A stretch of 64,000 nt of DNA, taken from assembly GCF_029255545.1 (NCBI RefSeq), contig NZ_JANLJJ010000017.1:8488-72487 (forward strand), given 5' to 3'. This DNA is from Ferrovibrio sp. GTDB lineage: Bacteria > Pseudomonadota > Alphaproteobacteria > Ferrovibrionales > Ferrovibrionaceae. The translations under genes and the position numbers were made by a program. The notes under the pieces are model-generated. The model did not search any database and was not told the DNA's origin. It worked only from the letters and a program-made list of their open reading frames with translations. Shown one piece after another: positions 8,112 to 23,312 of this stretch (the stretch's first letter is position 1; the number at the start of each line of letters is the position of its first letter).

Positions 8112-8185
8112 TGGGGGATCGTCTAACGGTAGGACCCCAGACTCTGACTCTGGTTGTCTAGGTTCGAATCCTAGTCCCCCAGCCA
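8112..8185 (+). tRNA. tRNA-Gln (anticodon CTG), 74 nt, encoded CCA
   Basis: Acceptor stem TGGGGGA/TCCCCCA+G+CCA; anticodon arm CCAGA-CTCTGAC-TCTGG; T-arm CTAGG-TTCGAAT-CCTAG. Confidence 0.97.
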
Positions 8186-8186
8186 A
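8166..8186 (+). repeat. attL core: 21-bp direct repeat (tRNA 3' end)
   Basis: GAATCCTAGTCCCCCAGCCAA, identical to 17301-17321. Confidence 0.95.
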
Positions 8187-8202
8187 AACTTTCTTAAATA
8201 TT

Positions 8203-8214
8203 TCAAATACTTAT
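8203..8214 (+). repeat. 12-bp inverted repeat inside attL (candidate integrase-binding site)
   Basis: TCAAATACTTAT is the exact reverse complement of ATAAGTATTTGA at 17260-17271. Confidence 0.6.
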
Positions 8215-8279
8215 GAAATCTGCCGACAAGGCAGGGCGATTTTCGCCGTGTCCGCTCTGACAGTCCACAGGAGCGAGGC

Positions 8280-9965
8280 ATGAGCAATAGGTTTCTGCGC
8301 GTTGTTGGCGGCCGATATGACTTCCGGCGCCGCATCCCTCCGGCACTTGTTTCTCGGTTTGGCGGTCAGCAAGAGTTGATCCGCAGCATCGGCAGCGTAC
8401 CGCACGCCGAAGCATTGGAGCGCGCCCGCCGTCTCGCGGTGGCAACAGATCGGTTATTTCGGATGGTTCGGCAGCAAGTCGAGTTGACACAGCAGCAGAT
8501 CGAGGAACTCGCTCGTGAATATTATGCGACGACACTGAGGGACTTCGAAAAGGCCAAGAAGCGGTACTCGGAAAAGGGCGCAGTGCAAGCTGAGCGAAGG
8601 GTTGAAGGCGCGAAAGAGCAGCTTCGTATGGGCTTCCTCGGTAACGCTGCACCGGACGCAATCGAGTTATTGCAGTCACGCGGTTTGGAGGTGGATGAGC
8701 AGAGTGATGGCTTCAAGCGTCTGTGTGAGTATATTTTGCGCGCATATGTGGAAGTTGCCCGCGTTCACAAGGCACGTTTCAGCGGTGATCATGGCGTGGT
8801 CGAGGCTGATTCTCTGTTCAAAGGGGCCGAGGCCGACGCTCGTAAGCCTGTGCCGAAATTCTCCGCCGGGTTCGATCTCTTTGTAGCCGAGAAGCTACAC
8901 ATGGATCAGTGGGGTCCAGATCAACAGCGAGATAACCGCAATACCAAAGCTATGTTTATTGAGTGGTGCGGCGATAAGCGGGTGGATCGTTACCACAGGA
9001 CTGAAATTGCCGAATTCGCCACGATGCTTCAGGCGTTGCCGCGCTTGCGAGGTAAGGTGCCTGCATTTAGTGGAAAGACACTTGCCGAGTTGGTTGCCAT
9101 GACCAAGGCGGATGGGAATATCGAGTGTTTGGCGCCGAAGTCTGTGAAGAAGCACGTCAGCAATATAAGCACCTTCTTCAAATGGCTCGAAAATAAAGGC
9201 TATGTTGATAAAAACCCGGCTAGAGGGGTGTATTCTTATAAGGACGACAGGCTGCCGTCAGAAGAACGCCCTGCTTGGTCGGTAGAGCAGCTTATTCGCC
9301 TTTTTTCTTCGCCGCTTTACCGGGGGGCAAAATCAGAGTGGATGCGATCAACGCCCGGAGATTTTATCAAAAGAGACGCGAGGTACTGGTTGCCGATTCT
9401 TGGCGCCTTCCATCCTGTTCGGCTCGAAGAAATGTCGCAGCTCAGAATTGCTGATATCAAGAGTGAAGAAGGTGTTTGGTTTATCGATATCACCCCCGGC
9501 GGCGCTGATCCGATTGCCGGCTTGCCCGAAAAGAAATTGAAGTCACCCGCCGCGCGGCGAAGGGTTCCGCTTCACTCCCTCGTTCTTGAGATCGGCTTTC
9601 TGAACTACCTAGAGTCAGCACGGCAGAGGGGCAAAGGGCTCGTGTTCTACGATCTTTCTGTTGGAGGGGTGGCAGACCGCTTCGGGTATGCCTTCTCGAA
9701 ATGGTTTTCTCGGTATACTCGGGCGCTGAACGTGGCGATCAATAAGCCCGATGAAAAAGGGGTAGATTTCCATAGCCTGCGGCACAACGCGGTATCGGCA
9801 ATGAAGTGGGCTGGCGTCCATACCGATGTCATGGACGAGTTGGAAGGACATGCCGGCGAAGGTGAGCGCAAGCGTTATGGTAAGCGGTCGCCCCTTACGG
9901 TGTTAAAGCCGGCCATCGATGCTATCCGATACGAAGGCATCACTGCCGATCTATTCCGGCTCTGA
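8280..9965 (+). CDS. Tyrosine recombinase/integrase with DUF6538-like N-terminus
   Basis: N-terminal YDFRRRIP; catalytic R (VRLEEM), K (LKSPAARRRVPLH), HxxR (FHSLRH), GH and Y (RKRYG). Confidence 0.93.
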   Translation: MSNRFLRVVGGRYDFRRRIPPALVSRFGGQQELIRSIGSVPHAEALERARRLAVATDRLFRMVRQQVELTQQQIEELAREYYATTLRDFEKAKKRYSEKGAVQAERRVEGAKEQLRMGFLGNAAPDAIELLQSRGLEVDEQSDGFKRLCEYILRAYVEVARVHKARFSGDHGVVEADSLFKGAEADARKPVPKFSAGFDLFVAEKLHMDQWGPDQQRDNRNTKAMFIEWCGDKRVDRYHRTEIAEFATMLQALPRLRGKVPAFSGKTLAELVAMTKADGNIECLAPKSVKKHVSNISTFFKWLENKGYVDKNPARGVYSYKDDRLPSEERPAWSVEQLIRLFSSPLYRGAKSEWMRSTPGDFIKRDARYWLPILGAFHPVRLEEMSQLRIADIKSEEGVWFIDITPGGADPIAGLPEKKLKSPAARRRVPLHSLVLEIGFLNYLESARQRGKGLVFYDLSVGGVADRFGYAFSKWFSRYTRALNVAINKPDEKGVDFHSLRHNAVSAMKWAGVHTDVMDELEGHAGEGERKRYGKRSPLTVLKPAIDAIRYEGITADLFRL

Positions 9966-9970
9966 CCGCC

Positions 9971-10387
9971 ATGCTGATCGCCGCTTTCGTGATCCTTGCC
10001 GTCCTTGGTTTCTTTGGGTGGGGTGCGGCACTGGCCCGGTTCCTGATCGGCGCCGTCACCTTGCCGGCCGTCCTGCTGTGGCGACTCATCCGACTGGCAG
10101 TCGGCGGGGCGGTGCTGGTCTTGCTGGTCAGTGCCTCTCCCGGCATCGCTGGTGATCTCAGGCTTGAGCGTCAGCCCGGCACGCCGGGCAATATCCGGGT
10201 ATACGAGGATGGCATCCTGAGAGGGGTGGCCCGGCCCGAGCAGGGCGGCAGCTACAGGTTTGACCGCCAGCCCGACCGGCTGATCCTGCCCGGCTCGATC
10301 TACGATCCGAAGTCCTCGAACTACCGGCGGGAGGCATGGCCGAAGGGCGATCCTCGGACCCCGGCACTGCCGAAATACGGTCGGTAG
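9971..10387 (+). CDS. Hypothetical membrane-anchored protein
   Basis: 138 aa, starts 5 nt after the integrase stop; hydrophobic N-terminal ~55 aa then a small beta-rich domain. Confidence 0.6.
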   Translation: MLIAAFVILAVLGFFGWGAALARFLIGAVTLPAVLLWRLIRLAVGGAVLVLLVSASPGIAGDLRLERQPGTPGNIRVYEDGILRGVARPEQGGSYRFDRQPDRLILPGSIYDPKSSNYRREAWPKGDPRTPALPKYGR

Positions 10388-10401
10388 ATTCAAAAACGCC
10401 A

Positions 10402-11460
10402 TTAGAAGCCCGTAGAGTCGTTTCTGCCTCCGGCAGCTACACCCCCTGCGGACGGGTCGCCGCAGGCGCTGGGCGAGTCAGAAATCGGCAGCGGCAGGCC
10501 CATCTTTAAGCAGATATACCCCTCCATCACCCGGCGGATCGCGTCCTGGCCCGACCAACGCGGGTTTCGCTGCTGGACCACCCAGATCAGAACCGGGGCA
10601 TCGGCTTCCAACTGACGCGCCCAATCGGCACCGGAAGCCTCGAGCGCCTTGACGATGTCGGCCGGCAGGTAGCGACCAAGCTCGCGGGCTAGGTCACGGA
10701 CATCGCTGCTGGCGAGCAGTTCGATGGGGAACTGGCCGGGGATTCCTGTCGCCTCGGCGTCTGCGAAATGGTGCTGGAGGTACGCGATGAAGCCGGCAAG
10801 GCCAGTGTAGCCGCGCGGGGCGTCAGTGATGGCGTGCAGGTAGACGGGCTTCTCAGGTTCGTCGCGGCGGCCCCGCCGCCAAAGCTCCCACGGCCCGCAA
10901 TCTTCACGCCGGCAGAGGAAGTCATGGACGGCCTTCATTGCCTTGCTGCGCCTCGGGAGATGGGCGGCAATATGCAGATGACGGTGCGGCAGCGTAGCTG
11001 CCAGTCCGACAAACGAGAGAGTGTCGCCGCCGGCCCGGCGGATCGCCTGATTGAGCTTGTCGAGGAACTGTCGAGGGGTTTCCCCGGAGGCTAAGTTGAT
11101 GCTCATGGCCGTATTCGGCTGCTTGCCGCCAAGGGCGGCTGACAGGCCAAACAGGCCCAGCTTTGTTGCGTCGTCGAAGTTTGAAAAACGCTTTTTCGGC
11201 TTCCAATCTTCAACGTAGAGCTTTGCATATCCCAACAGAACCGAAGTGTTCTCAATCTGCTTTGCGTTGTTATCGTTAGCAGAGAGAAGGGGCTTCTTAC
11301 GTCTATCCGAGGAGACTGTGGGGAGGGTGTTAGTGGTCTGATTTTCGAGTTCTAGCAGCATCTTGGAACGCTGCCGGCGGGAAGCTTGAACGTTCGGATG
11401 CAAGTTCGGAGCCTCCTCAGAGGGCACCGATTTGCGACGGGCAAGGGCGTCTGTTATCAT
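10402..11460 (-). CDS. Hypothetical protein, candidate HUH (Y1) rolling-circle Rep/relaxase
   Basis: 352 aa, GGAG RBS; ordered motifs AMSINL (I-like), PHRHLHIAAH (HUH, II) and FIAYLQHH (Tyr, III). Confidence 0.55.
   Translation of the reverse strand: MITDALARRKSVPSEEAPNLHPNVQASRRQRSKMLLELENQTTNTLPTVSSDRRKKPLLSANDNNAKQIENTSVLLGYAKLYVEDWKPKKRFSNFDDATKLGLFGLSAALGGKQPNTAMSINLASGETPRQFLDKLNQAIRRAGGDTLSFVGLAATLPHRHLHIAAHLPRRSKAMKAVHDFLCRREDCGPWELWRRGRRDEPEKPVYLHAITDAPRGYTGLAGFIAYLQHHFADAEATGIPGQFPIELLASSDVRDLARELGRYLPADIVKALEASGADWARQLEADAPVLIWVVQQRNPRWSGQDAIRRVMEGYICLKMGLPLPISDSPSACGDPSAGGVAAGGRNDSTGF
11432..11460 (+). promoter_or_regulatory. sigma70 promoter antisense to the candidate rep, overlapping its start codon
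   Basis: TTGCGA(11432-37)-N17-TATCAT(11455-60) with extended -10 TG at 11452-53. Confidence 0.6.
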
Positions 11461-11466
11461 CTACTC

Positions 11467-11528
11467 GCTCCATGCCCCGGTATGTCGGATCAATGCGATT
11501 GCAGTCGCACCGATTGCCGGGGCTTTTT
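11467..11528 (+). ncRNA. Predicted ~60-nt counter-transcribed RNA (ctRNA-like)
   Basis: Promoter immediately upstream; imperfect hairpin GCCCCGG(11474-80)...CCGGGGC(11517-23) with internal TCGG/CCGA and TGCGA/TCGCA pairs; TTTTT at 11524-28; complementary to the rep RBS. Confidence 0.5.
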
Positions 11529-11663
11529 CATTCTGAGGCCATGACGCCACAAGGGCGCTTTTGGACTCGTCGATTTTCAGGGAGCAGCACAGTCGCTCGG
11601 CCGCTTGGCGGTAATCATACGGCTGATCCAGGATTGAGTCAAAAACGCCCCCTCAAACGCCGA

Positions 11664-11688
11664 ACGGCGGCCCGTTGGGAGCCGCCGT
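11664..11688 (-). terminator. GC-rich hairpin downstream of the 52-aa gene (terminator or attenuator)
   Basis: ACGGCGGC/GCCGCCGT 8-bp stem, 9-nt loop; no adjacent U-tract. Confidence 0.35.
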
Positions 11689-11714
11689 CCTGCCGTCTTG
11701 GACTTGGTATTCGC

Positions 11715-11873
11715 TTAGTCAGCCTTCACCTCGACAGACAGTGCAATGTGCTTGTCGGTGAGCGGGTAGCTGTCGGTGCGGATCATCTCAGCGATGGCCT
11801 CCCGAATGTCAGCCTCGCTCATGCCCATGCCGTCGAAACGGGTGTCGGTGATGGAAATCTGTACTTGAGTCAT
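11715..11873 (-). CDS. Small hypothetical protein, 52 aa (below the ORF-track cutoff)
   Basis: AGGAGG RBS; MTQVQISITDTRFDGMGMSEADIREAIAEMIRTDSYPLTDKHIALSVEVKAD*; upstream TTGATT-N16-TATAAG (11930-11903). Confidence 0.7.
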   Translation of the reverse strand: MTQVQISITDTRFDGMGMSEADIREAIAEMIRTDSYPLTDKHIALSVEVKAD

Positions 11874-12000
11874 TGTTGGCCTCCTGTGTTGTCAGGCGAA
11901 CACTTATACTCAGATTCTTTAAAAAATCAATTATATCAATGTCTTATAGGTCATCGCTTATCATGCTGCTGGCCTATTGAGTGTGTTCATAAGCGGGCAC

Positions 12001-13209
12001 CTATGGCGGGTTTGATTGGTCGGAAGGATCGGCGGTATCGCTTGTCGTCTCTTCCGGCGTGTCGTCGTCCCCATATGTGTGCTTCATCGCTTCGATGCCG
12101 TCCTCTGCGCGCTTCTGCTCTGCGGCTATCGCGTTATCTAGCTCGACGATAAAGCGTTCAGCAAAGCCACGGACCTTAGCTCTCGGATCAGTCAACCAAG
12201 CTTCCATCCGCTGCCGGCGATCTTGATATACTTCCACGAAACCGAATTCGCCCGAGACAACGCCACTGCTCTCAATTGCAATTCGAATCTCGGTAAGAAT
12301 CTCATCCTCTTCAGGAATAGCCTCAACTAAGTCACGACAAACATCATCCATCCGAGCGTCGCCTTCATACTCACGGAGAACTTTAACGACAAACTTGAGG
12401 TCGCTAACTTCCCCTCCGGCAATGATCCGCTTTGAGTATTCAGACAGCGCGTCCGGGAATTCTGGGAAAGCGTTGTGTAGTAGGCGCGCGGAATATTCCT
12501 TCTGGTGCCACCCGGACCCGCGATGGATTAGTCGTGCAGCTTCCGCTACCAAATCAAAGTGTGGGGCGAAAGCATCCTTTAGATTGTGAAATTCATAGGG
12601 AACCGGCTCAAAATTCTCTGGCGCAATGTCCTTTTTATCCGATAGTTCAATACGGTCTGAAAACAGTTTTAGAACGATTTCTGGGTACCTTTCAGTTAGT
12701 CCCGCAAGTACCCACTCCTCGTGGATATCGACTTTTGAGCTGTAGATCAGAGTCGAGGCCATTCTCTCGGCAACTGTCTCAGAAAGGTGAGGGAGTATCC
12801 AATTCCGCTTTCTATACCAGACGGCATTGACCCATTTTCCGCTGTGAATATCGATGAAGAAATCCAAGCATGGAATGAAGACGTTGGCTTCCAAGTATGA
12901 AACGAAATCAGCACTTGCTTCGAAAGCAATTCCAAAAACTAGAACTGCTAGCATTTCATCTTTGTTATCAAGCGCAGCATCGGTGTAAATCTTTAAGTGG
13001 CCTGTGTCGATTGGGCTTGATGATTGCTCGTAAATTGCAAGTTGCCACAGGAATTTTCTCTCGCTCAGCCATTTCTCGACTAGCGCTCCAGCTTCACTTT
13101 TTAATTTTGACGATTTTAAACCAATCAGAAAATCTGGGATTGTTCGATCTGTCTTATCTGCACTCTGAACTCTTGTGAGAAAATCGAGTGCAACAGCAGG
13201 GGCTACCAC
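12001..13209 (-). pseudogene. Helical-repeat protein fragment (402 aa) resembling the C-terminus of large ATPase-type island proteins; possibly the 3' half of a disrupted gene
   Basis: AT-rich; GTG start without a clear RBS; in frame with the upstream ORF across one TGA; C-terminal SGEFGFVEVY...WLTD...FAERFI...AEQKRAE. Confidence 0.45.
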
Positions 13210-13230
13210 GGTCTTAATCGAGGATACTAC

Positions 13231-13797
13231 TCATGGCTGGTAGCTGGGACCGATCACAACTAGTCCACTTCCGTGCCTAAATGCACCAGCAACGATCTTG
13301 CGCTGGCCATATTTTACCTTCTGAGTAGCCCAAAGGACGGGGGCTATGTGAGGCCCTCGGATTGCAACATTAAATTCCGCTGCCGTTGGCATTGGCTCAG
13401 CGACGGAATTGTCAGGCTCAAGATCAGACCCAACATTCGGTTCTATAGTCAGATCAGTTAGTGGCCAGGTCGAATAGACAAGTTCTCGCAGCTCGTCTTC
13501 GTTGTTCTGAATTGAGAAGTTTAGTGGAAAAAGCAAGGTTCCACCCGCAGCGACCCAGCGCTGCAGCTTTGATGCTTTTGCTTGATAGTCCCGAGCCTCT
13601 TTTGTGTTTTTCAGCGGCACAATCTTATTGCTGTTGGAAAGCGATGCCATCACCTTGCGCGCGGCTTGCCCGTCAGGATGATCATTGATGGAGTTCCAGA
13701 TAATCCAGTCAAACTGCGCGAGGTCGGTGTGATCCAGTAGTGGGTACGATTGGCGCCGCGTTTCTCCGGCAAGCAACACATTGGCTTCTTTGGTCAT
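13231..13797 (-). CDS. Hypothetical protein, 188 aa (AT-rich cargo)
   Basis: Open frame with ATG; LQRWVAAGGTLL and HGSGLVVIGP resemble a glutamine-amidotransferase-like alpha/beta fold (weak). Confidence 0.55.
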   Translation of the reverse strand: MTKEANVLLAGETRRQSYPLLDHTDLAQFDWIIWNSINDHPDGQAARKVMASLSNSNKIVPLKNTKEARDYQAKASKLQRWVAAGGTLLFPLNFSIQNNEDELRELVYSTWPLTDLTIEPNVGSDLEPDNSVAEPMPTAAEFNVAIRGPHIAPVLWATQKVKYGQRKIVAGAFRHGSGLVVIGPSYQP

Positions 13798-14012
13798 TGA
13801 TCACCTTTTTGCCGTGCGTGTTCTTTGTTTAATAAAAGTGTGCCTTCCTCCAAGACTGAGATGGCACTCCAGTTCTGTTGAGTTGACAATGTTGACAAGT
13901 TTTTGGGGCCTCGCGAAATATTGATGGGCCTCGATTTCATCTAGACCTTCGTTTTTTTATTGCGTCGCATTTCGGATGTGCGAATCAATCTTGCTTCATG
14001 CTAAGCGACCGC

Positions 14013-14240
14013 TTAGCCCTTGGTCAGCAGCCCGTCTATGTAGAGCTTGACGTTGATGAGCATGGCATCGCGGGTCGGGCCGGCGATGATCCCATTGCTA
14101 GGCGATAGTTGAACCAGCCTCATAAGGGCGGGGTCGTTAGATGCCACATTGGCTGACCACTCATGGCTCATAAGTGGCGGGTTAAGCCATGTGATCTCAA
14201 ACCCTCGGTCGTGCTTGGTTTCAGTGTTCAGGCTGGCCAT
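14013..14240 (-). CDS. Small hypothetical protein, 75 aa
   Basis: GGGAGG RBS before ATG 14240 (MASLNTETKHDRGFEITWLNPP...); palindrome GCTAAGCG-AC-CGCTTAGC (14000-17) spans the stop. Confidence 0.6.
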   Translation of the reverse strand: MASLNTETKHDRGFEITWLNPPLMSHEWSANVASNDPALMRLVQLSPSNGIIAGPTRDAMLINVKLYIDGLLTKG

Positions 14241-14379
14241 AGCTGCCTCCCTTTGATTGCCGGCAATCCTAAGACGGCAACCGCGCGTCGCCCGACTGAA
14301 AATGGCGAAGAAAACCTCTTGGCAGCAGGCCGGGAGGCTGTTACATTTCATCGCAACGGACGTAGCGAAGGAATGTAAT

Positions 14380-15051
14380 ATGACCAAGTTCGTGGCGTAC
14401 TACCGAGTTTCGACCGACCGGCAGGGCCGGAGCGGGCTGGGTTTGGAGGCGCAGCGGGAAGCGGTCAGGCAGTACCTCGCTGACCGGGGCTGGCCTCCCA
14501 TCGCTGAGTTCACCGAGGTCGAGAGCGGCCGTAAAAGCAGCCGCCCCAAGCTGACCGAGGCGTTGGCGGCCTGCCGGCTGCACAAGGCCAAGCTGGTAAT
14601 TGCCAAGCTGGACCGCCTGACCCGTAACGTGGGGTTCCTCGTCAGCCTCCGGGACAGTGGGGTGGATTTCATCGCCTGCGACATGCCGGACGCCAATAAG
14701 CTGACAATCAATATCATTGCGGCCGTGGCAGAGGATGAAGCGGAGAGGATCAGCGCCCGTACCAAGGCCGCTCTCGCTGCCAAGGTGGCCCGTGACGGGC
14801 AGTGGGACCGGAAGGCCAAGCATCACCTAGTCCCCGGTGCGGGCCAGCAGCAGGCGACGGCAGCATTACAGGAGAGGGCGAAGGCGAGGGCGGCCGATTA
14901 TGCTCAAGAGATCGCCCGACTGCGGGCCACGGGCCTGTCGTCCCTGAGGGCCATTGCCGAAGCCCTGAATGAACAAGGCATCCCGACCACTCGGGGCGGC
15001 AGATGGCAAGCTGTGCAGGTGAAGCGGGTTCTGGACCGAGTGGCAGCCTGA
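14380..15051 (+). CDS. Serine recombinase (resolvase/invertase family)
   Basis: YYRVSTDRQ..SGLGLEAQ (catalytic Ser), ESG, RPKL..AL, LVIAKLDRLTRN; C-terminal LRAIAEALNEQGIPT.RGG.W. Confidence 0.93.
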   Translation: MTKFVAYYRVSTDRQGRSGLGLEAQREAVRQYLADRGWPPIAEFTEVESGRKSSRPKLTEALAACRLHKAKLVIAKLDRLTRNVGFLVSLRDSGVDFIACDMPDANKLTINIIAAVAEDEAERISARTKAALAAKVARDGQWDRKAKHHLVPGAGQQQATAALQERAKARAADYAQEIARLRATGLSSLRAIAEALNEQGIPTTRGGRWQAVQVKRVLDRVAA

Positions 15052-15073
15052 CCCCCGGCTATTCCTAAAATCG

Positions 15074-15102
15074 AAGGGCCGCCTGCTAGGGCGGCCCTTT
15101 TT
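15074..15102. terminator. Intrinsic terminator between convergent genes
   Basis: AAGGGCCGCC/GGCGGCCCTT stem followed by a T run. Confidence 0.75.
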
Positions 15103-15104
15103 CG

Positions 15105-15944
15105 TTATGCGGCTATCTTGCTCGATATGAGGTCCGGCTGTTCCCGGCACTTGTCGAGGATCATGGCTTTGACCTTTTCTGCATCCTTCCGGGGCAAGCC
15201 TGCCTTGATACCGATCCGCAAGGCGAGTGCACGAAGGCCGGCCATCCCTTGCGCGGTATGGATTTTATCAAGGTTACCCCTCGCTACTCCCAACTGCCGA
15301 GCGACGGCCTCGGCGACAATGGCGCTCTTTGCGGCCTCGCGCTGTGTCGCGGCCTCACTGACAGCCGCCCCCAGTTTGTCTGAGGTCGGGGTAGAGGTGT
15401 CCGTCTTTTCCTCTTCGGTCGCATCGCCGTCATCAAACGCGGCAGAGTGATCCGCCTCGACCGACTGCCTCATCTCGGCCGCTTCCTCGTCCGTCATCAC
15501 CCGAATGTGCATGGTCGAGAGCTTCTCAGGCTCGTTGGCCTGCCCCGGAATCAACCCAATCGCTACCATCCGATCTTCAAGATCGGCTACCGCTGCGGTG
15601 AGGTCGCGGAGGCTTTTGGGGGCCAGGCCGCCAGCGGCAGCGATGCGGGACGCTTCGTCCATCAGGTTGATAAAGGTGGCAGCCCGGAAATTCAGGATAA
15701 GGCGCTGCCGTTCTTCCTCGTTCTCGGTCGCCATCAGCTTGGCGAACAGGCGGTCGCTTTCCGCGCGCACCGCCCGGACGCTGGTTCCGGGTTTCAGGTC
15801 ATGCTTGATACCCCGTGCCTTTAGAACGCGGGACACGGCCGCCCGAGTGACGCCGCAGCGGGCGGCGATCTCTGACATCGTCACAGTCCCGGCTTCCACC
15901 CCAGCAATATCTTCGGGGGTGAGGTCAACCCGTCCGCAAAGCAT
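15105..15944 (-). CDS. HTH-containing hypothetical protein, 279 aa
   Basis: TMSEIAARCGVTRAAVSRVLK helix-turn-helix; TGATG overlap with the upstream gene. Confidence 0.7.
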   Translation of the reverse strand: MLCGRVDLTPEDIAGVEAGTVTMSEIAARCGVTRAAVSRVLKARGIKHDLKPGTSVRAVRAESDRLFAKLMATENEEERQRLILNFRAATFINLMDEASRIAAAGGLAPKSLRDLTAAVADLEDRMVAIGLIPGQANEPEKLSTMHIRVMTDEEAAEMRQSVEADHSAAFDDGDATEEEKTDTSTPTSDKLGAAVSEAATQREAAKSAIVAEAVARQLGVARGNLDKIHTAQGMAGLRALALRIGIKAGLPRKDAEKVKAMILDKCREQPDLISSKIAA

Positions 15945-16177
15945 CAGACATTCGCCGCCTTGCGCTGGTCGAGGCCGGCGCGGATACGCGCAGCACCACG
16001 AAGCAGGGAACGCTGCTGCTCGGCTGCGGCTTCGGCGAGGATGGCTTTTCGAGCGTCCGTATGTTCCTGCCGGAGCTGCATGAGACGCTTGTAGTCGGCT
16101 TCGTTGAAATCGACATTCTCATCGCCATCAACCAGACGGATATAGCGTTCTTCGAGTTCCTGACGTTCGGTAGACAT
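15944..16177 (-). CDS. Hypothetical protein, 77 aa
   Basis: TGATG overlaps at both ends; charged helical sequence. Confidence 0.7.
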   Translation of the reverse strand: MSTERQELEERYIRLVDGDENVDFNEADYKRLMQLRQEHTDARKAILAEAAAEQQRSLLRGAARIRAGLDQRKAANV

Positions 16178-16368
16178 CAAGCCTTGGTCCTTTTCATCGT
16201 CTGGGAGAAGCGCAATTCGTGGTAAACAAGGTCGGTTATGGAGATCAAGAACGCTGCGCGTTCGTCATTGGTCATATCTCCGAGCCGGTCGATGTTGCCC
16301 TTAACGTGTTCCGCGAGCGCAACGTGCTCTGGTGACATGGCGAGAGTAGTCACTGTCCGCTCATCCAT
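16177..16368 (-). CDS. Hypothetical protein, 63 aa
   Basis: TGATG overlaps at both ends. Confidence 0.7.
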   Translation of the reverse strand: MDERTVTTLAMSPEHVALAEHVKGNIDRLGDMTNDERAAFLISITDLVYHELRFSQTMKRTKA

Positions 16369-17051
16369 CACGCCACCGCCTTGATATGGCCGGCGATTGC
16401 ATCGATCTGGCCGAGAATGGCGGCAGTGGCGGCCCGTAATTCGATGATCTCGGCCATGACGCTGGGGGCGATGGCCGGCCTGTGGTCCGGGGTGCTGGCA
16501 GCAGCAGCCTCGGCCGCGATGGCAGAAATCTTTGCCGCCTGGGCGCGGATGCTGGCCCGCTTCGCCTCGATAGCTGCCTCGATATCGGCAAGATCAGACA
16601 GCTTGGCCTTGATCTCGCTGGCGTCGAAGGCGATCAGCCCGAGATTCTGTGAGAGAAAGTTCGCGTGGTCGATCTCCCGACAGCTTGTATCGAAGGCGAG
16701 CGAGGCTGCTAGGTCGGCGCCGTAGACACGGGCTTGAGCGGCAATCTCGAATGAAGCCGCTCCCTTCTTTGCCAGCTTCCGTAGATCGTCGGTGTAGGTA
16801 TCGCCGACAGCCTGCGCGTCGGAAAGCGTGGTCAGAACCTCGACGCGGCATGAGATTGCCTGCTGAACGACAGCGACAAGGCGCTTGGCGGCTTCTGCGG
16901 CAGTGAGCCGTTCCGCATCGCTATCGATGCCGGAGAATACGCCGACCATGTTGGAAGGAGCCGGAGCGAGAGCGATGCCAGCACAGAACGGCACGTCAAG
17001 ATGATGCTGTCTGATCTGGTTATGGACTGCCCGCGAAGCGACGTAGATCAT
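16368..17051 (-). CDS. Hypothetical Ala-rich coiled-coil protein, 227 aa
   Basis: First gene of the coupled operon; heptad-like C-terminal half. Confidence 0.7.
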   Translation of the reverse strand: MIYVASRAVHNQIRQHHLDVPFCAGIALAPAPSNMVGVFSGIDSDAERLTAAEAAKRLVAVVQQAISCRVEVLTTLSDAQAVGDTYTDDLRKLAKKGAASFEIAAQARVYGADLAASLAFDTSCREIDHANFLSQNLGLIAFDASEIKAKLSDLADIEAAIEAKRASIRAQAAKISAIAAEAAAASTPDHRPAIAPSVMAEIIELRAATAAILGQIDAIAGHIKAVA

Positions 17052-17081
17052 GGAAAGTGCCTGCCTTGATGAAATTAGCTA

Positions 17082-17117
17082 TTGACAAATGAAACGTTAT
17101 AACATGACACTTGTCAA
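17082..17117 (-). promoter_or_regulatory. 36-bp imperfect palindrome (operator-like) overlapping a candidate promoter of the four-gene operon
   Basis: TTGACAA-N7-GTTATAAC-N7-TTGTCAA; minus strand TTGACA(17117-12)-N17-TTTCAT(17094-89). Confidence 0.5.
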
Positions 17118-17300
17118 GTTTGGCTGTATTTGGCCAAATTTCCGCCCGTAGGAACGCTGAAATTGCTCAATTGAGCAATGCTATTGACGAAATGCCGGTC
17201 AAGGACTCATCATCAGCGGCAGTCCACAAGGGCGGTACACACGGAGAAATTGCCGCTTAATAAGTATTTGATCTTATTTATGAAATAGAGTTTTTGCTGG

Positions 17301-17321
17301 GAATCCTAGTCCCCCAGCCAA
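17301..17321 (+). repeat. attR core: duplicated tRNA-Gln 3' end
   Basis: Identical 21-mer to 8166-8186. Confidence 0.95.
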
Positions 17322-17432
17322 TCTTCTCTCTGACAAATTGGTTTTTTCCGCTGTCAGTTCTCACGTTTGTTGAGACTCAACAAACTATTGCGAGAAAAGC
17401 GATAACCTTAAACGAGGTCCGGCGCCGATCGC

Positions 17433-18131
17433 TCAGCGCGACGCCGCTTCCAGCCCTCTGTTCAGAAACCTGGGGAATAGGATGTTGTTCTCCAGGTGGA
17501 TATGGTCGACCAGATCGTCGATCAACTTGCGCAGCCCTGCGTATAATGCGTGCCAGCTCCGGCATGCATCGGCAGGGGGCATGCACCCCGCAGTGAGGGT
17601 TTCCAACTGGCGCAACATGGCGCCATGGCTCTCGTGATCGAGCATCATCATCTCAATCGTGCTCCCGATCAGCGGACCTTCACCCTCCTTGATCAGGGCA
17701 AACACGATATGCTCTTCCTTGCACATATGCATCTCCAGCTCCAGGCGCATCGTCTGAAGCAGCCTTGAGAGCCCTGCCGGCAGGGCCTGGTGTCCACCGT
17801 GGACCGCTTCAATCTTCAGCGCCAGATCGATCAGCCCGGGCAACTCCCGCCGGTGCGTTTCGTGATAGCGCTCGGTGATGTGATCGATCAGGTCCCGCGT
17901 CATGGTCGGCATCTGGCGCGACGCAGGCTGTGCTATTGCGGCGAGTTCCGTCTCGATCTGCGGCAGTATCAGATTTGAATGCCGCGCGGCCTCTGACAGC
18001 GTGAGATCGCCCCTGCAGCAGAAATCGATCCGGTGCGATCGGAGAACGGCTGCGGCAGAGGGAAACGAACGTACAATTTCGGCCAGAGTCCTGGACGAAA
18101 ACGATGCCGGGCCAGGTAAGAAATCCTGCAT
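17433..18131 (-). CDS. ric: Iron-sulfur cluster repair di-iron protein (Ric/YtfE/ScdA)
   Basis: IDFCCRG N-terminal domain; HITERYHETHR, HMCKEE.I.F, DHESHG and HIHLENNILFP hemerythrin ligands. Confidence 0.93.
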   Translation of the reverse strand: MQDFLPGPASFSSRTLAEIVRSFPSAAAVLRSHRIDFCCRGDLTLSEAARHSNLILPQIETELAAIAQPASRQMPTMTRDLIDHITERYHETHRRELPGLIDLALKIEAVHGGHQALPAGLSRLLQTMRLELEMHMCKEEHIVFALIKEGEGPLIGSTIEMMMLDHESHGAMLRQLETLTAGCMPPADACRSWHALYAGLRKLIDDLVDHIHLENNILFPRFLNRGLEAASR

Positions 18132-19998: not shown

Positions 19999-21003
19999 TC
20001 AGGTTGAAATCGTCACGGTCTGACCTTCGGCAGTGATCAAATGGGCGCGACCGGCGCCCTGGCGGCGCAGGACTCCGCCAATCGCTTCGGGAGCCATGAG
20101 GGTAAAGGCGGTGGACAGCGCATCGGCTGCCATCGCGGTTGGCATGACCACCGAGACGCTGCGATAGCGCTGGGGCGAGTATCCGCTTTGCGGATTGAAG
20201 ATGTGATGGAAACGGCCTGCCGCATCGAAACGGAAACCATAACCGCCGGACGTGGCGAGCGCCGCGTCCGCCAGCGGAACGATCAGCTCGTCCCGGCCTG
20301 GCTCCAACGGATCGGCGATCATGGCCCGCCATGGTCGGCCATCGGGATGATGTCCCAGCGCACGACTTTCGCCCATATCCACCAAAGTATGCGCGATGCC
20401 GTGCCGGTGCAGTTGCTTGACCACCCGGTCGGTGACATAGCCTTGCGCGATGCCGTTCAGGCTGATCGCCATGCCGGGTCGCCGGAAGGCGATACGATCC
20501 CGGCTGACCAGCAGATGGTCCAGCCCAACAGCCTGCAATGCGGCGGCAATATCGGTAGCGGGCGGACCGCCTTGCGCGGCCTGCGGCTGGGCGAAGTGGC
20601 GGCTGTACAGCGCCCAGAGCGGCTGGATGGTTGGATCGAAGGCGCCATCGGTGAGCGCGGCATACTGCCGGCTGGCCTGCAGCAGATCGACCAGTTCGGG
20701 TGCGGGCGCAACCAGGCTGCCCTGGCGGTTCAACAGGCTGAGCGCGGAATCCGGCCGGTAGAGGCTGAGCACTGATTCCAGCCGGCGCATATCCTGCAAC
20801 ACCAGTCGCAGGGCCTGTTCGGCCACCGCGATATCATGGTGGTGAATCCGGATGCTGGCATTGGCGCCAAGCGCAATCCCCTGCCATTCGACCAGCCCGG
20901 CTTCCGCCCTTGCCGGTCCGGCCAGCGGCAGCAGGCCCAGACCCGCAGCCGCGGCCGAGATGCCAAGGAAACGCCGGCGGGTGAGGTTGCGATCAGTGGG
21001 CAT
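19999..21003 (-). CDS. nosX: FAD:protein FMN transferase (ApbE family)
   Basis: Tat signal LTRRRFLG; DGAFDPTI, LNGIAQGYVTD, ALATSG.YG, HHIFNP, ADALSTA; in the nos operon. Confidence 0.92.
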   Translation of the reverse strand: MPTDRNLTRRRFLGISAAAAGLGLLPLAGPARAEAGLVEWQGIALGANASIRIHHHDIAVAEQALRLVLQDMRRLESVLSLYRPDSALSLLNRQGSLVAPAPELVDLLQASRQYAALTDGAFDPTIQPLWALYSRHFAQPQAAQGGPPATDIAAALQAVGLDHLLVSRDRIAFRRPGMAISLNGIAQGYVTDRVVKQLHRHGIAHTLVDMGESRALGHHPDGRPWRAMIADPLEPGRDELIVPLADAALATSGGYGFRFDAAGRFHHIFNPQSGYSPQRYRSVSVVMPTAMAADALSTAFTLMAPEAIGGVLRRQGAGRAHLITAEGQTVTIST

Positions 21004-21568
21004 GGCCGGCCCGTCCCTCGGCGACCCGCTGCGGGGTGCCGGCACCATCCATATGGCTGCTGTCGCTGTCGCCACCGAGAATGTAGTCGCGCGGCACGTC
21101 GGCAAACCCGACGATGCGGCCGCCATGCTCGGCCACGAAACGCTCGGCTGCGGCGCGGTCGCCAAAAGGCACGGCCTCGTCGGCTCCCATGCCGCTGCGC
21201 ATCCGGCTGCCGATCACGAAGCTGGCCTGGCGCGCCTCGATCCAGTTCTCGATGCCCGGATTGTCCCAGCTTGCCGCCCGCGCCATGTCGGAGACGTAGA
21301 TGGCGCTGATAGTCTTCGCCTCCTCCGGCAGCATGGTATAGGCGAGGGTATCGCGCGCCGACGAGAACCAGACCGGCTCGGGCCAGCCGGCCAGCAGGAT
21401 ATGCCCCTTCGGACCGGGATGCTCCAGCACGTTCATGCCGCAGTAATTGCCGATGGCTTCGGCGGTCAGGGTGCGCGGCGGCGGCAGGTCCGATGTCCTG
21501 GCGTCATCCCTGCAGCCGGCCAGCAATGCGGCGGTCATGATGACAATGGTGCAGGCGAGGCGGTTCAT
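20993..21568 (-). CDS. nosL: Copper chaperone lipoprotein NosL
   Basis: Lipobox LAGC; YCGM....H.GPKG, FSSARD, MGA.E.VPF. Confidence 0.93.
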   Translation of the reverse strand: MNRLACTIVIMTAALLAGCRDDARTSDLPPPRTLTAEAIGNYCGMNVLEHPGPKGHILLAGWPEPVWFSSARDTLAYTMLPEEAKTISAIYVSDMARAASWDNPGIENWIEARQASFVIGSRMRSGMGADEAVPFGDRAAAERFVAEHGGRIVGFADVPRDYILGGDSDSSHMDGAGTPQRVAEGRAGHAH

Positions 21569-22395
21569 AATTCCCTCCGCGAGAAGATGGTGGTGGCGGC
21601 GGCCAGCGGCAGGAGAATCCAGACTGCCAGCATGCCCAGCAGTACAGGCGGCTGCAGGGTCTGGACTTCGGCGATGCCGGCCATGCCGGACAGGCTGCTG
21701 ACACCGGCCGAGCCGGCCAGGTTGAACATCCGGTAGGTGTCGGTGGGATTGAGCAGCAGCAGGACATTCAGCATGTCGGCCGACAGGGTGCGGCCCTGAT
21801 CGACCACCAGGAAGCCGAGGATCGCCATGTCGTAGAGCAGCACCAGCAGCAGCCAGATGCCGATGGCAATACCGCCCGCCGTGCCGCGATCCTGCACATG
21901 GGCACTGACCAGATAGCCGATGGCGACGAATACCGCGCCCAGCAGGATGGAAGATCCGATCAGTTGGGCAAAGGCCATCCAGCTGTCGGCCCCGATCGGC
22001 GTACCGGTGAGCGCCAGGGCCGCTGCCGTCGCGCCATAACCGAGAATGGTGGCAAAGGCCAGGATGGCGAGGTGGCCGCAGAATTTGCCCAGCAGCACTT
22101 GCCAGCGCGCCACCGGATAGCTGAGCAGCAGCAGCATGGTGCCGCGGTCGACTTCGCCGACGATGGCATCATATGAGATCAGCAGGGCAATCAGCGGCAG
22201 CAGGAAGATCGACAGGCTGGACAGGCTGACAATCACCACATCCAGCGCGCGCACGCCGACATTGCCGGTCGGCGCGCTGCCGAGGAAGCTCAGGGTCAGC
22301 GACAGGGCCAGCAGCAGCAGCGTAGTGGCCAAAACCCAGCGGTTGCGCAGGCCTTCCTGGATTTCCTTGATCGCAATGATGCACAGGCTTTTCAT
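21565..22395 (-). CDS. nosY: ABC transporter permease NosY
   Basis: KEIQEGLRNRW, YDAIVGEVDRGTMLLLLSYP, LLNPTD.YR. Confidence 0.93.
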   Translation of the reverse strand: MKSLCIIAIKEIQEGLRNRWVLATTLLLLALSLTLSFLGSAPTGNVGVRALDVVIVSLSSLSIFLLPLIALLISYDAIVGEVDRGTMLLLLSYPVARWQVLLGKFCGHLAILAFATILGYGATAAALALTGTPIGADSWMAFAQLIGSSILLGAVFVAIGYLVSAHVQDRGTAGGIAIGIWLLLVLLYDMAILGFLVVDQGRTLSADMLNVLLLLNPTDTYRMFNLAGSAGVSSLSGMAGIAEVQTLQPPVLLGMLAVWILLPLAAATTIFSRREL

Positions 22396-23312
22396 CGGGC
22401 ATCCCCTTGGCTGCGCAGGAAATGAGCGTAAAGCTCATCCAGCGTGGGCGGCACCACCTCTATATCCTCAAGCGCGTGATCGGCATGGATCGCCTGCCGC
22501 AGCAGGTCCATCTTCTGCTCGGGCAGGGCATCGAGTTCGATGACATGGCCATTGACCGGGTGCCAGGTGCCGGCACTCTCGAGCCAGCCGGGCATCTGCG
22601 CCGGGCGGCCGCCGGTCAGGTGCAGCCGGATCCGCGTCGGCAGCCGGGCGATACGGCGCAACGCATCGAGCGATCCGTTGGCCACCATCAGGCCGCGGTT
22701 CATGATGACAACCCGGTCGGTACGCTCTTCCAGTTCGGTCAGCGCATGCGACGACAGAACCACGGTGGCGCCGCGATCGCGCAGCTCCTGCACGATCTCG
22801 TAGAAACTCTGGCGCAGGGCCGGATCGAGGCCGGTGGTGGGTTCATCAAGCAGCAGCAAAGCCGGCGCGCCGATCAGCGCCTGGGCCAGCCCGAGACGCT
22901 GGCGCATGCCCTTGGAATAGGTGCCGACCCGCCGGCCGGCGGCAGCGGCCAGACCGACGCGGTCCAGCAACGCCATGGCCTGGGCCGGCGCTTCGCCTTT
23001 CAGGCGGGCGTAGAAGGCCAGCAATTCGCGGCCGGTGAGGGCTGCGTTGAACGACACATTTTCGGGCAGGTAACCCAGGCGGCGGCGGGCGGCGAATTCG
23101 CCGGCGGCCGGATGCTCACCCAGTATCTTCACCATGCCTTCGCTGGGATGGATCAGGCCCAGCATCAGCTTGATCAACGTGGTCTTGCCAGCACCGTTAT
23201 GGCCGACCAGGGCCACGGTTTCACCCGCCGGCAGGGAGAAAGAAACGCTGCGCACCGCCTCAATGCGACCGTAGCGCTTGCTGACATTGTCGATTTCAAC
23301 GGTGTTGTTCAT
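22392..23312 (-). CDS. nosF: ABC transporter ATPase NosF
   Basis: GHNGAGKTT, YSKGMRQR, LLLDEPTTGLDP. Confidence 0.93.
   Translation of the reverse strand: MNNTVEIDNVSKRYGRIEAVRSVSFSLPAGETVALVGHNGAGKTTLIKLMLGLIHPSEGMVKILGEHPAAGEFAARRRLGYLPENVSFNAALTGRELLAFYARLKGEAPAQAMALLDRVGLAAAAGRRVGTYSKGMRQRLGLAQALIGAPALLLLDEPTTGLDPALRQSFYEIVQELRDRGATVVLSSHALTELEERTDRVVIMNRGLMVANGSLDALRRIARLPTRIRLHLTGGRPAQMPGWLESAGTWHPVNGHVIELDALPEQKMDLLRQAIHADHALEDIEVVPPTLDELYAHFLRSQGDAR

Follow-up and report, generated by a model that had tools for sequence, protein, structure and literature searches.

A tRNA-Gln island of Ferrovibrio sp. as a probable member of a rare integrative family with a candidate HUH-type initiator and a defense slot

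What kind of mobile element occupies the 3' end of the tRNA-Gln(CTG) gene of Ferrovibrio sp., and how might it replicate and spread? The question is raised by positions 8166-17321 of a 64-kb stretch of contig NZ_JANLJJ010000017.1 (assembly GCF_029255545.1); the whole stretch analyzed, 64,000 nucleotides, is called the window here. An original prediction had seen in this segment a possible new satellite or integrative plasmid. On balance, we favor the reading that it belongs, in intact form, to a rare and so far undescribed family of integrative islands, roughly 9-13 kb in length, that probably replicate by rolling circle and carry defense genes. A tyrosine integrase of the DUF6538 type placed the element in the 3' end of tRNA-Gln(CTG). 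Its conserved backbone consists of two modules: (i) the integrase gene int, the small gene orf52, and a rep-like gene with its leader and (ii) a serine recombinase gene that converges with a four-gene operon. Between the modules lies a variable cargo slot, which holds anti-phage systems in relatives. The integration and excision hardware and the family are real, while rolling-circle replication is a reasoned inference. The island belongs to a familiar kind, the small integrase-bounded defense island; what is new is the backbone, with a rep-like family that has no curated model and a conserved operon.

Where does the element begin and end? The gene map was built from lists of open reading frames (ORFs), GC content by codon position, and scans for ribosome-binding sites (RBSs). 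The ends and the integration hardware map as follows.

8112..8185, + strand: tRNA-Gln(CTG), the integration target, whose 3' end is the attL core (ARAGORN; Rfam RF00005, 60.9 bits)
8166..8186, + strand: attL core, a 21-bp direct repeat, GAATCCTAGTCCCCCAGCCAA (exact repeat search)
8187..8279, no strand: int-proximal att arm (inverted repeat I6; homologous to the arms of sister elements L001 and L009)
8280..9965, + strand: tyrosine integrase gene int, 561 aa, with an N-terminal DUF6538 domain (Pfam, PHROGs)
17052..17300, no strand: operon promoter/operator palindrome and operon-side att arm (repeat and palindrome comparison)
17301..17321, + strand: attR core, the second copy of the 21-bp repeat (exact repeat search)

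This tRNA is the only one that ARAGORN found in the window, and the Rfam scan matched nothing beyond it. The repeat GAATCCTAGTCCCCCAGCCAA comprises the last 20 bases of tRNA-Gln(CTG) and one more. It occurs exactly twice in the 64-kb window; a search that tolerated 3 mismatches turned up no further copy there and no copy at all in 100 shuffles. The two copies bound a 9,135-bp insert that is low in GC and lies among host core genes: GC is 0.67-0.70 in the left flank and 0.45-0.66 in the insert, reaching its minimum (0.45-0.48) at 12.5-14 kb. The left flank encodes TlyA-like and tRNA-U5-methyltransferase-like proteins, and the right flank encodes ScdA/hemerythrin, a Crp-family regulator, and a radical-SAM/SPASM protein; read from these genes, the host genome would be high in GC and of Gram-negative type. 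The boundaries of the original prediction, with their perfect 21-bp repeats, are correct, and the att repeats, the drop in GC, and the host flanks bear out its view of a discrete, integrase-bounded element.

The DNA beside each core is conserved as well. In the int-proximal arm, TCAAATACTTATGAA at 8203-8217 is the inverted partner of TTAATAAGTATTTGA at 17257-17271 in the operon-side arm. This pair, 17-30 bp off each core, is common to the window, L001, and L009, as are (T/G)GTGGAC repeats in both arms. The int-proximal arm also contains a CAGTCCACA motif immediately 5' of int, and the operon-side arm carries GTGTGTAC/TTGTGGAC repeats. A conserved pair of arms with repeats would be the pattern expected of Int arm and core sites. 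The stretch between the operon and attR is AT rich (GC 0.47 at 17000-17499).

Is the integrase intact? Scans of all window ORFs against four curated collections (Pfam, PHROGs, NCBIfam, and PADLOC) were informative only for int, the resolvase, and a generic helix-turn-helix (HTH). Int matches DUF6538 (2e-10) and phrog_1 "integrase" (2e-23), and its score against Pfam Phage_integrase (25.6 bits) is slightly below the 27.1 cut-off. By inspection, the catalytic residues R381, H498-x-x-R501, H524, and Y533 are all present, and all are invariant in comparison with the sister integrase. With family-profile matches and a full, conserved catalytic set, the protein is intact, as had been claimed. Its identity to other integrases is 74% for L001 (559 aa), 70% for L009, 49% for L007, and 29% for L010.

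Does the island have relatives with the same layout? The original prediction would have been refuted had no homologous elements with conserved gene order turned up, and such elements are present at both tRNA-Gln and tRNA-Ala. Contigs L001-L006, which carry the rep-like cluster P0002 and come from at least six samples, share one site with the window, tRNA-Gln(CTG) next to the methyltransferase gene. The order in L001 is int, rep-like, orf52, cargo, resolvase, a 149-aa membrane ORF, a 271-aa HTH protein, and ORFs of 68, 57, and 229 aa; integrase apart, its backbone is 39-47% identical to that of the window by tblastn. The metagenomic contig L009 has a complete 10.4-kb copy, closely related to the L001 element, that is bounded by the 3' end of the tRNA and by a partial repeat of 16 bp. 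It lies at tRNA-Gln (L009:231-10727) in the opposite orientation, with the operon beside the tRNA and int distal. The L009 int-side and operon-side arms are homologous to the window arms up to the core, but the asymmetric core centre has the reverse orientation with respect to them; in both attP versions (window/L001 and L009), an imperfect inverted repeat, TTG(G)C...GCCAA, surrounds this centre. Just past the distal repeat is a second long integrase-like ORF (L009:10993-12687, 564 aa), which suggests tandem islands at tRNA-Gln.

Other relatives are more distant. L010 has a 9.9-kb element at tRNA-Ala(CGC), bounded by a 21-nt repeat (95% identity) and containing the operon, the resolvase, the 29%-identical integrase, and a shorter rep-like protein (hhalign E 1.3e-4, HHRHLHL motif). 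In L007, the 49%-identical integrase is immediately upstream of a 30%-identical rep-like gene. Complete members measure 9.1-10.4 kb. Among GTDB representative genomes, no relatives of the integrase pair or of the HTH-protein alignment were found.

Which protein could replicate such an element? The candidate and its control region occupy the following positions.

10402..11460, - strand: rep-like gene, 352 aa, with HUH at H161-L-H163 and candidate catalytic Y227 (family alignment, AlphaFold2 [AF2] model)
11432..11528, + strand: candidate antisense RNA (counter-transcribed RNA, ctRNA) unit (promoter scan, RNA folding, covariation)
11614..11642, - strand: rep promoter TTGACT-17-TATGAT, the best sigma-70 match of the island (promoter scan)
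11715..11873, - strand: orf52, a conserved small backbone protein upstream of rep (GC and RBS scans, tblastn)

The rep-like protein is rare. In a word-indexed set of 5.8 billion proteins it has one other 90%-identity cluster (P0002), and when 1.84 billion representatives were searched exhaustively by HMMER with a two-sequence profile, the family numbered 19 proteins. In five contexts (window, L001, L007, L009, and L010), it is linked to an integrase. The ATG at 11460 is favored as its start because a Met-Ile start is kept in P0002, L001, and L009. The source-record products are shorter for this protein (333 aa, P0001), as they are for orf402 (253 aa, P0023) and HTH279 (257 aa, P0020), both described below; the longer starts of the rep-like protein (352 aa) and orf402 (402 aa) are backed by homologues, which keep the N termini.

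An alignment of 16 family sequences (A2), 22-42% identical to the window protein, shows G152, H161, H163, F181, Y227, and A258 to be nearly invariant. The His pair lies in the context P-H-x-H-u-H-u-u and the Tyr in Y-L-x-H-H; the Tyr follows the HUH motif by 64-66 residues, and no conserved Tyr is found N terminal of it. The AF2 model made from A2 has a predicted local distance difference test (pLDDT) score of ~90 for core residues 80-270 and a beta-alpha-beta-beta-alpha-beta fold, in the order helix, strand 117-122, helix, strands 150-156 and 160-166, helix, strand 206-210, and helix 220-238. In it, strand 160-166 carries the HxH, and the long helix 220-238 carries Y227. As modeled, this topology is that of a Rep-type HUH nuclease, as is the motif order (HUH, then Tyr), which is not the order of a relaxase. 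The protein has no helicase domain. In a BFVD fold search, the named matches were mostly parvovirus NS1 and CRESS-DNA-virus Rep proteins, all weak (E 2e-3 to 6e-2), and among the weak PDB matches were the adeno-associated virus Rep nuclease and the IS200 TnpA. The rep-like ORF of the original prediction is real and conserved in other elements, with HUH and Tyr in Rep order and a compatible predicted fold. That it represents a new, very divergent family of HUH-type initiators is credible but unproven.

How would synthesis of such a protein be controlled? The rep promoter is conserved in L001 and L009, and the GCCGAGCGA box downstream of it is kept in four of four elements (window, L001, L009, and L010). 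A hairpin follows at 11474-11523. On the - strand, it is the rep mRNA leader and ends 2 nt before the rep RBS. On the + strand, it is flanked by a promoter-like TTGCGA-17-TGtTATCAT (11432-11460), with a -10 box reverse complementary to the conserved ATGATA start, and by a T-run (TTTTT, 11524-11528) that is present in the window, L001, and L009. The candidate antisense RNA would be ~60 nt long, with a stem of -31.8 kcal/mol (z -4.25) and a 5' tail that pairs with the rep RBS. Across the four elements, 97% of the hairpin cells are paired, and 6 pairs are altered on both sides; none of 500 shuffles reaches the observed values, and sliding the partners collapses the pairing. A structured rep mRNA leader is the securest reading here, and an antisense RNA at the leader is probable. 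The upstream orf52 has an AGGAGG RBS and its own terminator hairpin and is 46-50% identical to its counterparts in L001 and L009. This plasmid-style control region supports the view of module 1 as a replicon.

The same protein and leader might be read in terms of transfer. In an integrative mobilizable element, the HUH/Tyr protein would be mainly a relaxase (MOB_T-like) that nicks an origin of transfer (oriT) near its gene, while a co-resident element supplies the type IV secretion system (T4SS). HUH and Tyr chemistry with no helicase or primase domain would suit this role, and the noncoding GCCGAGCGA box and hairpin beside the gene could be the oriT. An accepted MOB class consists of relaxases with kinship to rolling-circle replicases, and defense genes cluster near oriT in such islands (10.64898/2026.01.13.699239). 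However, the protein has no relaxase or Rep_trans match in Pfam, NCBIfam, or PHROGs; no coupling protein or accessory relaxosome gene was recognized; tblastn with the rep-like protein and HTH279 found no relatives among PLSDB plasmids; and RNA-level copy control suits a replicon better than a relaxase gene. We consider the mobilizable element quite unlikely. Conjugative mobilization, having neither a relaxase family match nor PLSDB relatives, is unproven.

If the island is indeed a rolling-circle replicon, what does the second module contribute?

14380..15051, + strand: small serine recombinase of resolvase/invertase type, 223 aa (Pfam, PHROGs, NCBIfam)
15073..15100, no strand: terminator hairpin with a 12-bp stem between the convergent resolvase gene and operon (terminator scan)
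15105..15944, - strand: HTH279, a 279-aa HTH DNA-binding protein, last gene of the operon (generic HTH match)
15944..16180, - strand: p78, a conserved operon gene (tblastn against sister elements)
16177..16371, - strand: p64, an operon gene with a similar-sized gene at the same position in all sister elements, the similarity being below threshold
16368..17051, - strand: p227, first gene of the operon, conserved in sister elements (tblastn)

The recombinase is the resolvase that had been predicted: it matches PF00239 Resolvase (2e-28, above cut-off) as well as a Recombinase domain, and the active-site Ser motif YYRVSTDRQ is seen in its translation. It is 38-41% identical to those of the sister elements. 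Res-like repeats were sought around the cargo slot, and nothing convincing was found. The operon (17051-15105, - strand) is translationally coupled in the order p227, p64, p78, and HTH279. All members keep the resolvase and operon as a module, and the resolvase always converges with the operon. A palindrome, TTGACAAGTG...CATTTGTCAA, overlaps the putative operon promoter (window 17060-17130), and its form TTGACAA(G/A)TG...CATTTGTCAA is found ahead of the operon in both the window and L009, which suggests repression by a dimeric DNA-binding protein.

The products of the operon are harder to place. In HTH279, the HTH is located at the N terminus and accompanied by long helices. In four of four members, the protein matches phrog_867 ("DNA binding domain") along almost its entire length (best 4e-7); its matches to small-terminase PHROGs are weak (E 0.008-0.08). 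Its AF2 model is poor (pLDDT 65), and the fold search made with it matched nothing. Because the model is poor and the fold search uninformative, a TerS-like role is not claimed. No match for p227, p78, or p64 was found in the curated collections. The same scans of the window element found no capsid, portal, terminase, primase, helicase, AlpA/HTH_17, relaxase, or T4SS gene, in agreement with the original prediction, which had recognized no capsid, conjugation, primase, or AlpA gene.

Could such an assortment of genes be what is left of a larger prophage or of a filamentous phage? An HUH Rep, an integrase, and small ORFs are also the outline of an integrated inovirus. However, the backbone is intact, and its order is conserved at 38-74% identity in similar-sized elements with their own att repeats. 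The ORFs lacking a family are likewise intact and conserved at 38-50% identity, so they are not the prophage debris that the original prediction had allowed for. Pfam and PHROGs show no Zot-like morphogenesis ATPase and no phage structural family, and p64 and p78 are charged, soluble proteins that are not coat-like. Both the decayed prophage and the inovirus were rejected on these grounds, an intact and conserved backbone with no Zot or coat gene, and are hardly credible.

What fills the slot between orf52/rep and the resolvase? Its content differs in every element.

12001..13209, - strand: cargo orf402, 402 aa (profile search, neighborhood comparison)
13231..13797, - strand: cargo orf188, 188 aa, the upstream partner of orf402 (curated scans)
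L001 slot: short prokaryotic Argonaute (pAgo; 1.8e-168) and REase-APAZ partner (8.5e-165), then LysR, cupin, and an insertion sequence (PADLOC)
L010 slot: AbiD (4e-74; Pfam Abi_2 2.5e-55) (PADLOC, Pfam)
L009 slot: four ORFs, one of them HK97-gp10-like (Pfam 3.5e-6, above cut-off)
L011:6084-9106, L014:5413-8449, L015:2626-5621, and L016:123-3291: loci with a RelA_SpoT gene and an orf402 relative

Judged by its sister elements, the central segment is a cargo slot for known anti-phage systems, a feature that the original prediction had overlooked. The short pAgo system of L001 (L001:6587-9384) looks complete and, with its REase-APAZ partner, is read as SPARDA-like. L008, which has a distant rep-like gene, carries a short pAgo (3e-204), DISARM DrmA (1.5e-257), and an MZB gene (L008:4993-11870), and a HEPN_Apea gene is near another distant rep-like gene, P0009. 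A lone HK97-gp10-like head-tail gene adjoins the resolvase at L009:4405-5040 and, as a faint match, at L001:3370-3948; the window has no such gene. Its product could serve as a decoy in phage interference, or the gene could hint at a link with phages.

The cargo of the window itself is the pair orf188 and orf402 (GC 0.45-0.53). Proteins related to orf402 range from 233 to 701 aa in length, at 27-36% identity, and in four of four independent contexts a RelA_SpoT-domain gene lies directly upstream of theirs, sometimes overlapping. Two of these RelA_SpoT partners match the PADLOC candidate system PDC-S33, and one of the loci adjoins a Fic gene. The RelA_SpoT gene and the orf402 relative look like an undescribed two-gene module. 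For orf188, no relatives were found, and it is not RelA_SpoT-like. By position and association, orf188 and orf402 are a candidate two-gene defense or toxin-antitoxin-like module with a swapped partner.

A defense slot raises the question of whether the island is a phage satellite. A satellite or phage-inducible island would excise and replicate when triggered by a helper and be packaged in helper capsids, and its defense cargo would act against competing phages. A small size (9.1-10.4 kb), tRNA integration, and the slot itself resemble P4-like satellites and phage-inducible chromosomal islands (PICIs), and both the gp10-like protein of L009 and L001 and the PHROGs matches of HTH279 would fit a phage connection. 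However, the window element has no gp10-like gene, HTH279 has a poor structure model that matches nothing, and the curated collections yielded no capsid, portal, terminase, Sid/Psu/Cpm-like, AlpA, or primase-replicase gene. Of the regulators, replicases (pri-rep or alpha), and hijack genes (Sid/Psu/Delta, Cpm/Ppi, TerS, or a capsid module) that mark P4-like, PICI, cfPICI, PLE, and PICMI satellites, none was found in the window element, the weak small-terminase PHROGs matches of HTH279 aside. Four backbone proteins (rep-like, int, HTH279, and p227) have no relatives in IMG/VR, and two (rep-like and HTH279, by tblastn) have none among GenBank phages, although such absences are weak evidence. With no packaging or capsid-hijack gene and with these searches empty, the satellite of the original prediction is not supported, and we consider it unlikely.

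How might the parts work together in an island that replicates by rolling circle? In the proposed life cycle, Int would excise the element, and the resulting circle would replicate like a rolling-circle plasmid, with the 352-aa HUH/Tyr protein nicking an origin near its own gene. Candidates for the nick site are the GCCGAGCGA box and the hairpin at 11474-11523. The leader hairpin and the ~60-nt antisense RNA would throttle Rep synthesis at the RNA level. The serine recombinase would resolve multimers, and the operon behind its palindromic operator may regulate or maintain the excised form, while the orf188 and orf402 cargo would act as a defense or toxin-antitoxin-like module. Because the element has no transfer machinery of its own, its spread would need a helper (a phage, a gene transfer agent, or a conjugative element) or passive routes.

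Several observations weigh against this scheme. The cargo pair of the window matches no defense model (orf188, orf402, and the small orf75 have no PADLOC match), the family is known only from one genome and metagenomic contigs, and the functions given to the resolvase and the operon are guesses. None of the 16 rep-like members matches a curated Rep, relaxase, or HUH family in Pfam, the best match being Phage_GPA (E 0.19) in one member. PHROGs and NCBIfam have nothing for the family, the PDB sequence profile gave nothing relevant, and no origin or nick site was recognized. A Foldseek search of the PDB with the model found nothing significant; RRM domains came first (E 0.046), with the adeno-associated virus Rep nuclease 1uut at 0.11 and the IS200 TnpA 2ec2 at 0.34. 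In the control region, the T-run is absent from L010, and the hairpin contains a G-U pair that is invariant in the sense strand and would be a C-A mismatch in the antisense RNA, which favors the sense mRNA as the structured strand. For these last two reasons, the antisense RNA is less secure than the hairpin. The antisense control of the original prediction is upheld in its covarying hairpin, promoter-like site, and T-run, and less so in the RNA itself. The invariant G-U pair can also be argued to favor an RNA-level role over a DNA cruciform origin.

Might the 352-aa protein then have nothing to do with replication? The island would in that case be integrative only, with no autonomous replication, and the protein could be, for example, a regulatory or DNA-binding one with an RRM-like fold. 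The RRM matches, nonsignificant as they are, and the lack of a sequence link to any Rep family fit this explanation. Set against it are a His pair (HxH) on a strand and one Tyr on the next long helix that stay near-invariant at just 22-42% identity, the integrase linkage in five contexts, and the plasmid-style control elements upstream of the rep-like gene. We regard an integrative-only island as distinctly improbable.

Two further ORFs complete the map of the element.

9971..10387, + strand: orf138, a predicted membrane protein and the least certain gene call (hydrophobic N-terminal segments; GC at third codon positions 0.79)
14013..14240, - strand: orf75, a small window-specific ORF with a GGAGG RBS (ORF and RBS scans)

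By tblastn, orf138 has no counterpart in the sister elements and is also window specific. With these two, the ORFs that have no curated family are orf138, rep-like, orf52, orf402, orf188, orf75, HTH279 (generic HTH only), p78, p64, and p227. Such ORFs exist as originally described, with the count being ten rather than about nine. Outside the island, a 16-nt motif (CGGCCAGCGGCAGCAG-like) occurs in 4 copies at ~630-705 bp spacing (window 20919-22948); these may reflect tandem paralogous genes or chance in GC-rich DNA.

Why does an island of this kind matter? For most genomic islands, we know of no means of movement. The compact backbone described here is likely unseen by current detectors; such tools would miss the family for want of an AlpA, primase, relaxase, or capsid gene. 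The family offers three leads: (i) HUH-type initiators of a new family, whose origin can be sought in a defined control region, (ii) a four-gene operon and resolvase that could explain how such islands are maintained or transferred, and (iii) a positional candidate for a new defense pair tied to toxSAS-like systems. One bolder speculation, which we think doubtful, is that the islands form a new class of helper-dependent hitchers in high-GC proteobacteria, defined by an unrecognized HUH Rep family with antisense-RNA control, a resolvase, and the four-gene module. In that case, the cassette would be an anti-phage system of a new type: the 402-aa module, whose normal partners are toxSAS-like RelA_SpoT effectors, would have a novel effector instead. 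The advance is limited in that defense-carrying integrative islands are already well known and this family is rare and almost entirely metagenomic.

How, finally, does the island compare with known systems? In rolling-circle plasmids of the pMV158/pT181 type, an HUH Rep is limited by a small antisense RNA, and a Cop-type regulator ORF lies upstream. The island is alike in its candidate antisense RNA, which ends in a hairpin over the rep leader, and in the position of orf52, which is that of Cop. It is unlike them in showing no similarity to Rep_1, Rep_2, or Rep_trans, in being chromosomally integrated, and in having no recognized double-strand or single-strand origin (dso/sso). The defining genes of P4-like and PICI satellites encode AlpA or Stl regulators, a primase-helicase replicase, and proteins that hijack capsids or packaging. 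These satellites share with the island a small size, an integrase, a tRNA or fixed site, and a variable slot with anti-phage systems, whereas the island lacks their defining genes, has an HUH-like replication protein, and has no matches in virus collections. An HTH_17 gene is present upstream of the rep-like gene in the distant relative L008.

Integrative mobilizable elements and oriT islands are minimal hitchers with an integrase, no mating-pore genes, and defense genes near the transfer origin (10.64898/2026.01.13.699239). Like MOB_T elements and relaxase-less oriT islands, the present element has an integrase, carries defense genes, and has no mating-pore genes; unlike them, it has no recognized relaxase family or known oriT, and its four-gene operon and resolvase fall outside those definitions. 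Pipolins and other bimodular integrative elements are described as direct-repeat-flanked, exchangeable defense reservoirs (PMC11551731). In this they resemble the island, a direct-repeat-flanked integrative element with exchangeable defense genes, although it has no primer-independent PolB and uses other replication and recombination modules.

Integrative and conjugative elements of actinomycetes (AICEs) can replicate in a plasmid-like manner after excision, and RepSA of pSAM2 resembles rolling-circle Reps (PMC2440964). The island differs from AICEs of the pSAM2 type in that it has no homologue of FtsK-like Tra, Spd, Kor, Pra, or Xis, its integrase being the only AICE marker, and no detectable rep similarity to RepSA-type families. 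It also has a serine recombinase and a defense cargo slot, and its host, read from the flanking genes, would be of Gram-negative type rather than an actinomycete. What the two share is a size of ~10 kb and residence in a tRNA gene by means of a tyrosine integrase, and the pSAM2-type AICE would be the closest functional analogue of the life cycle proposed here.

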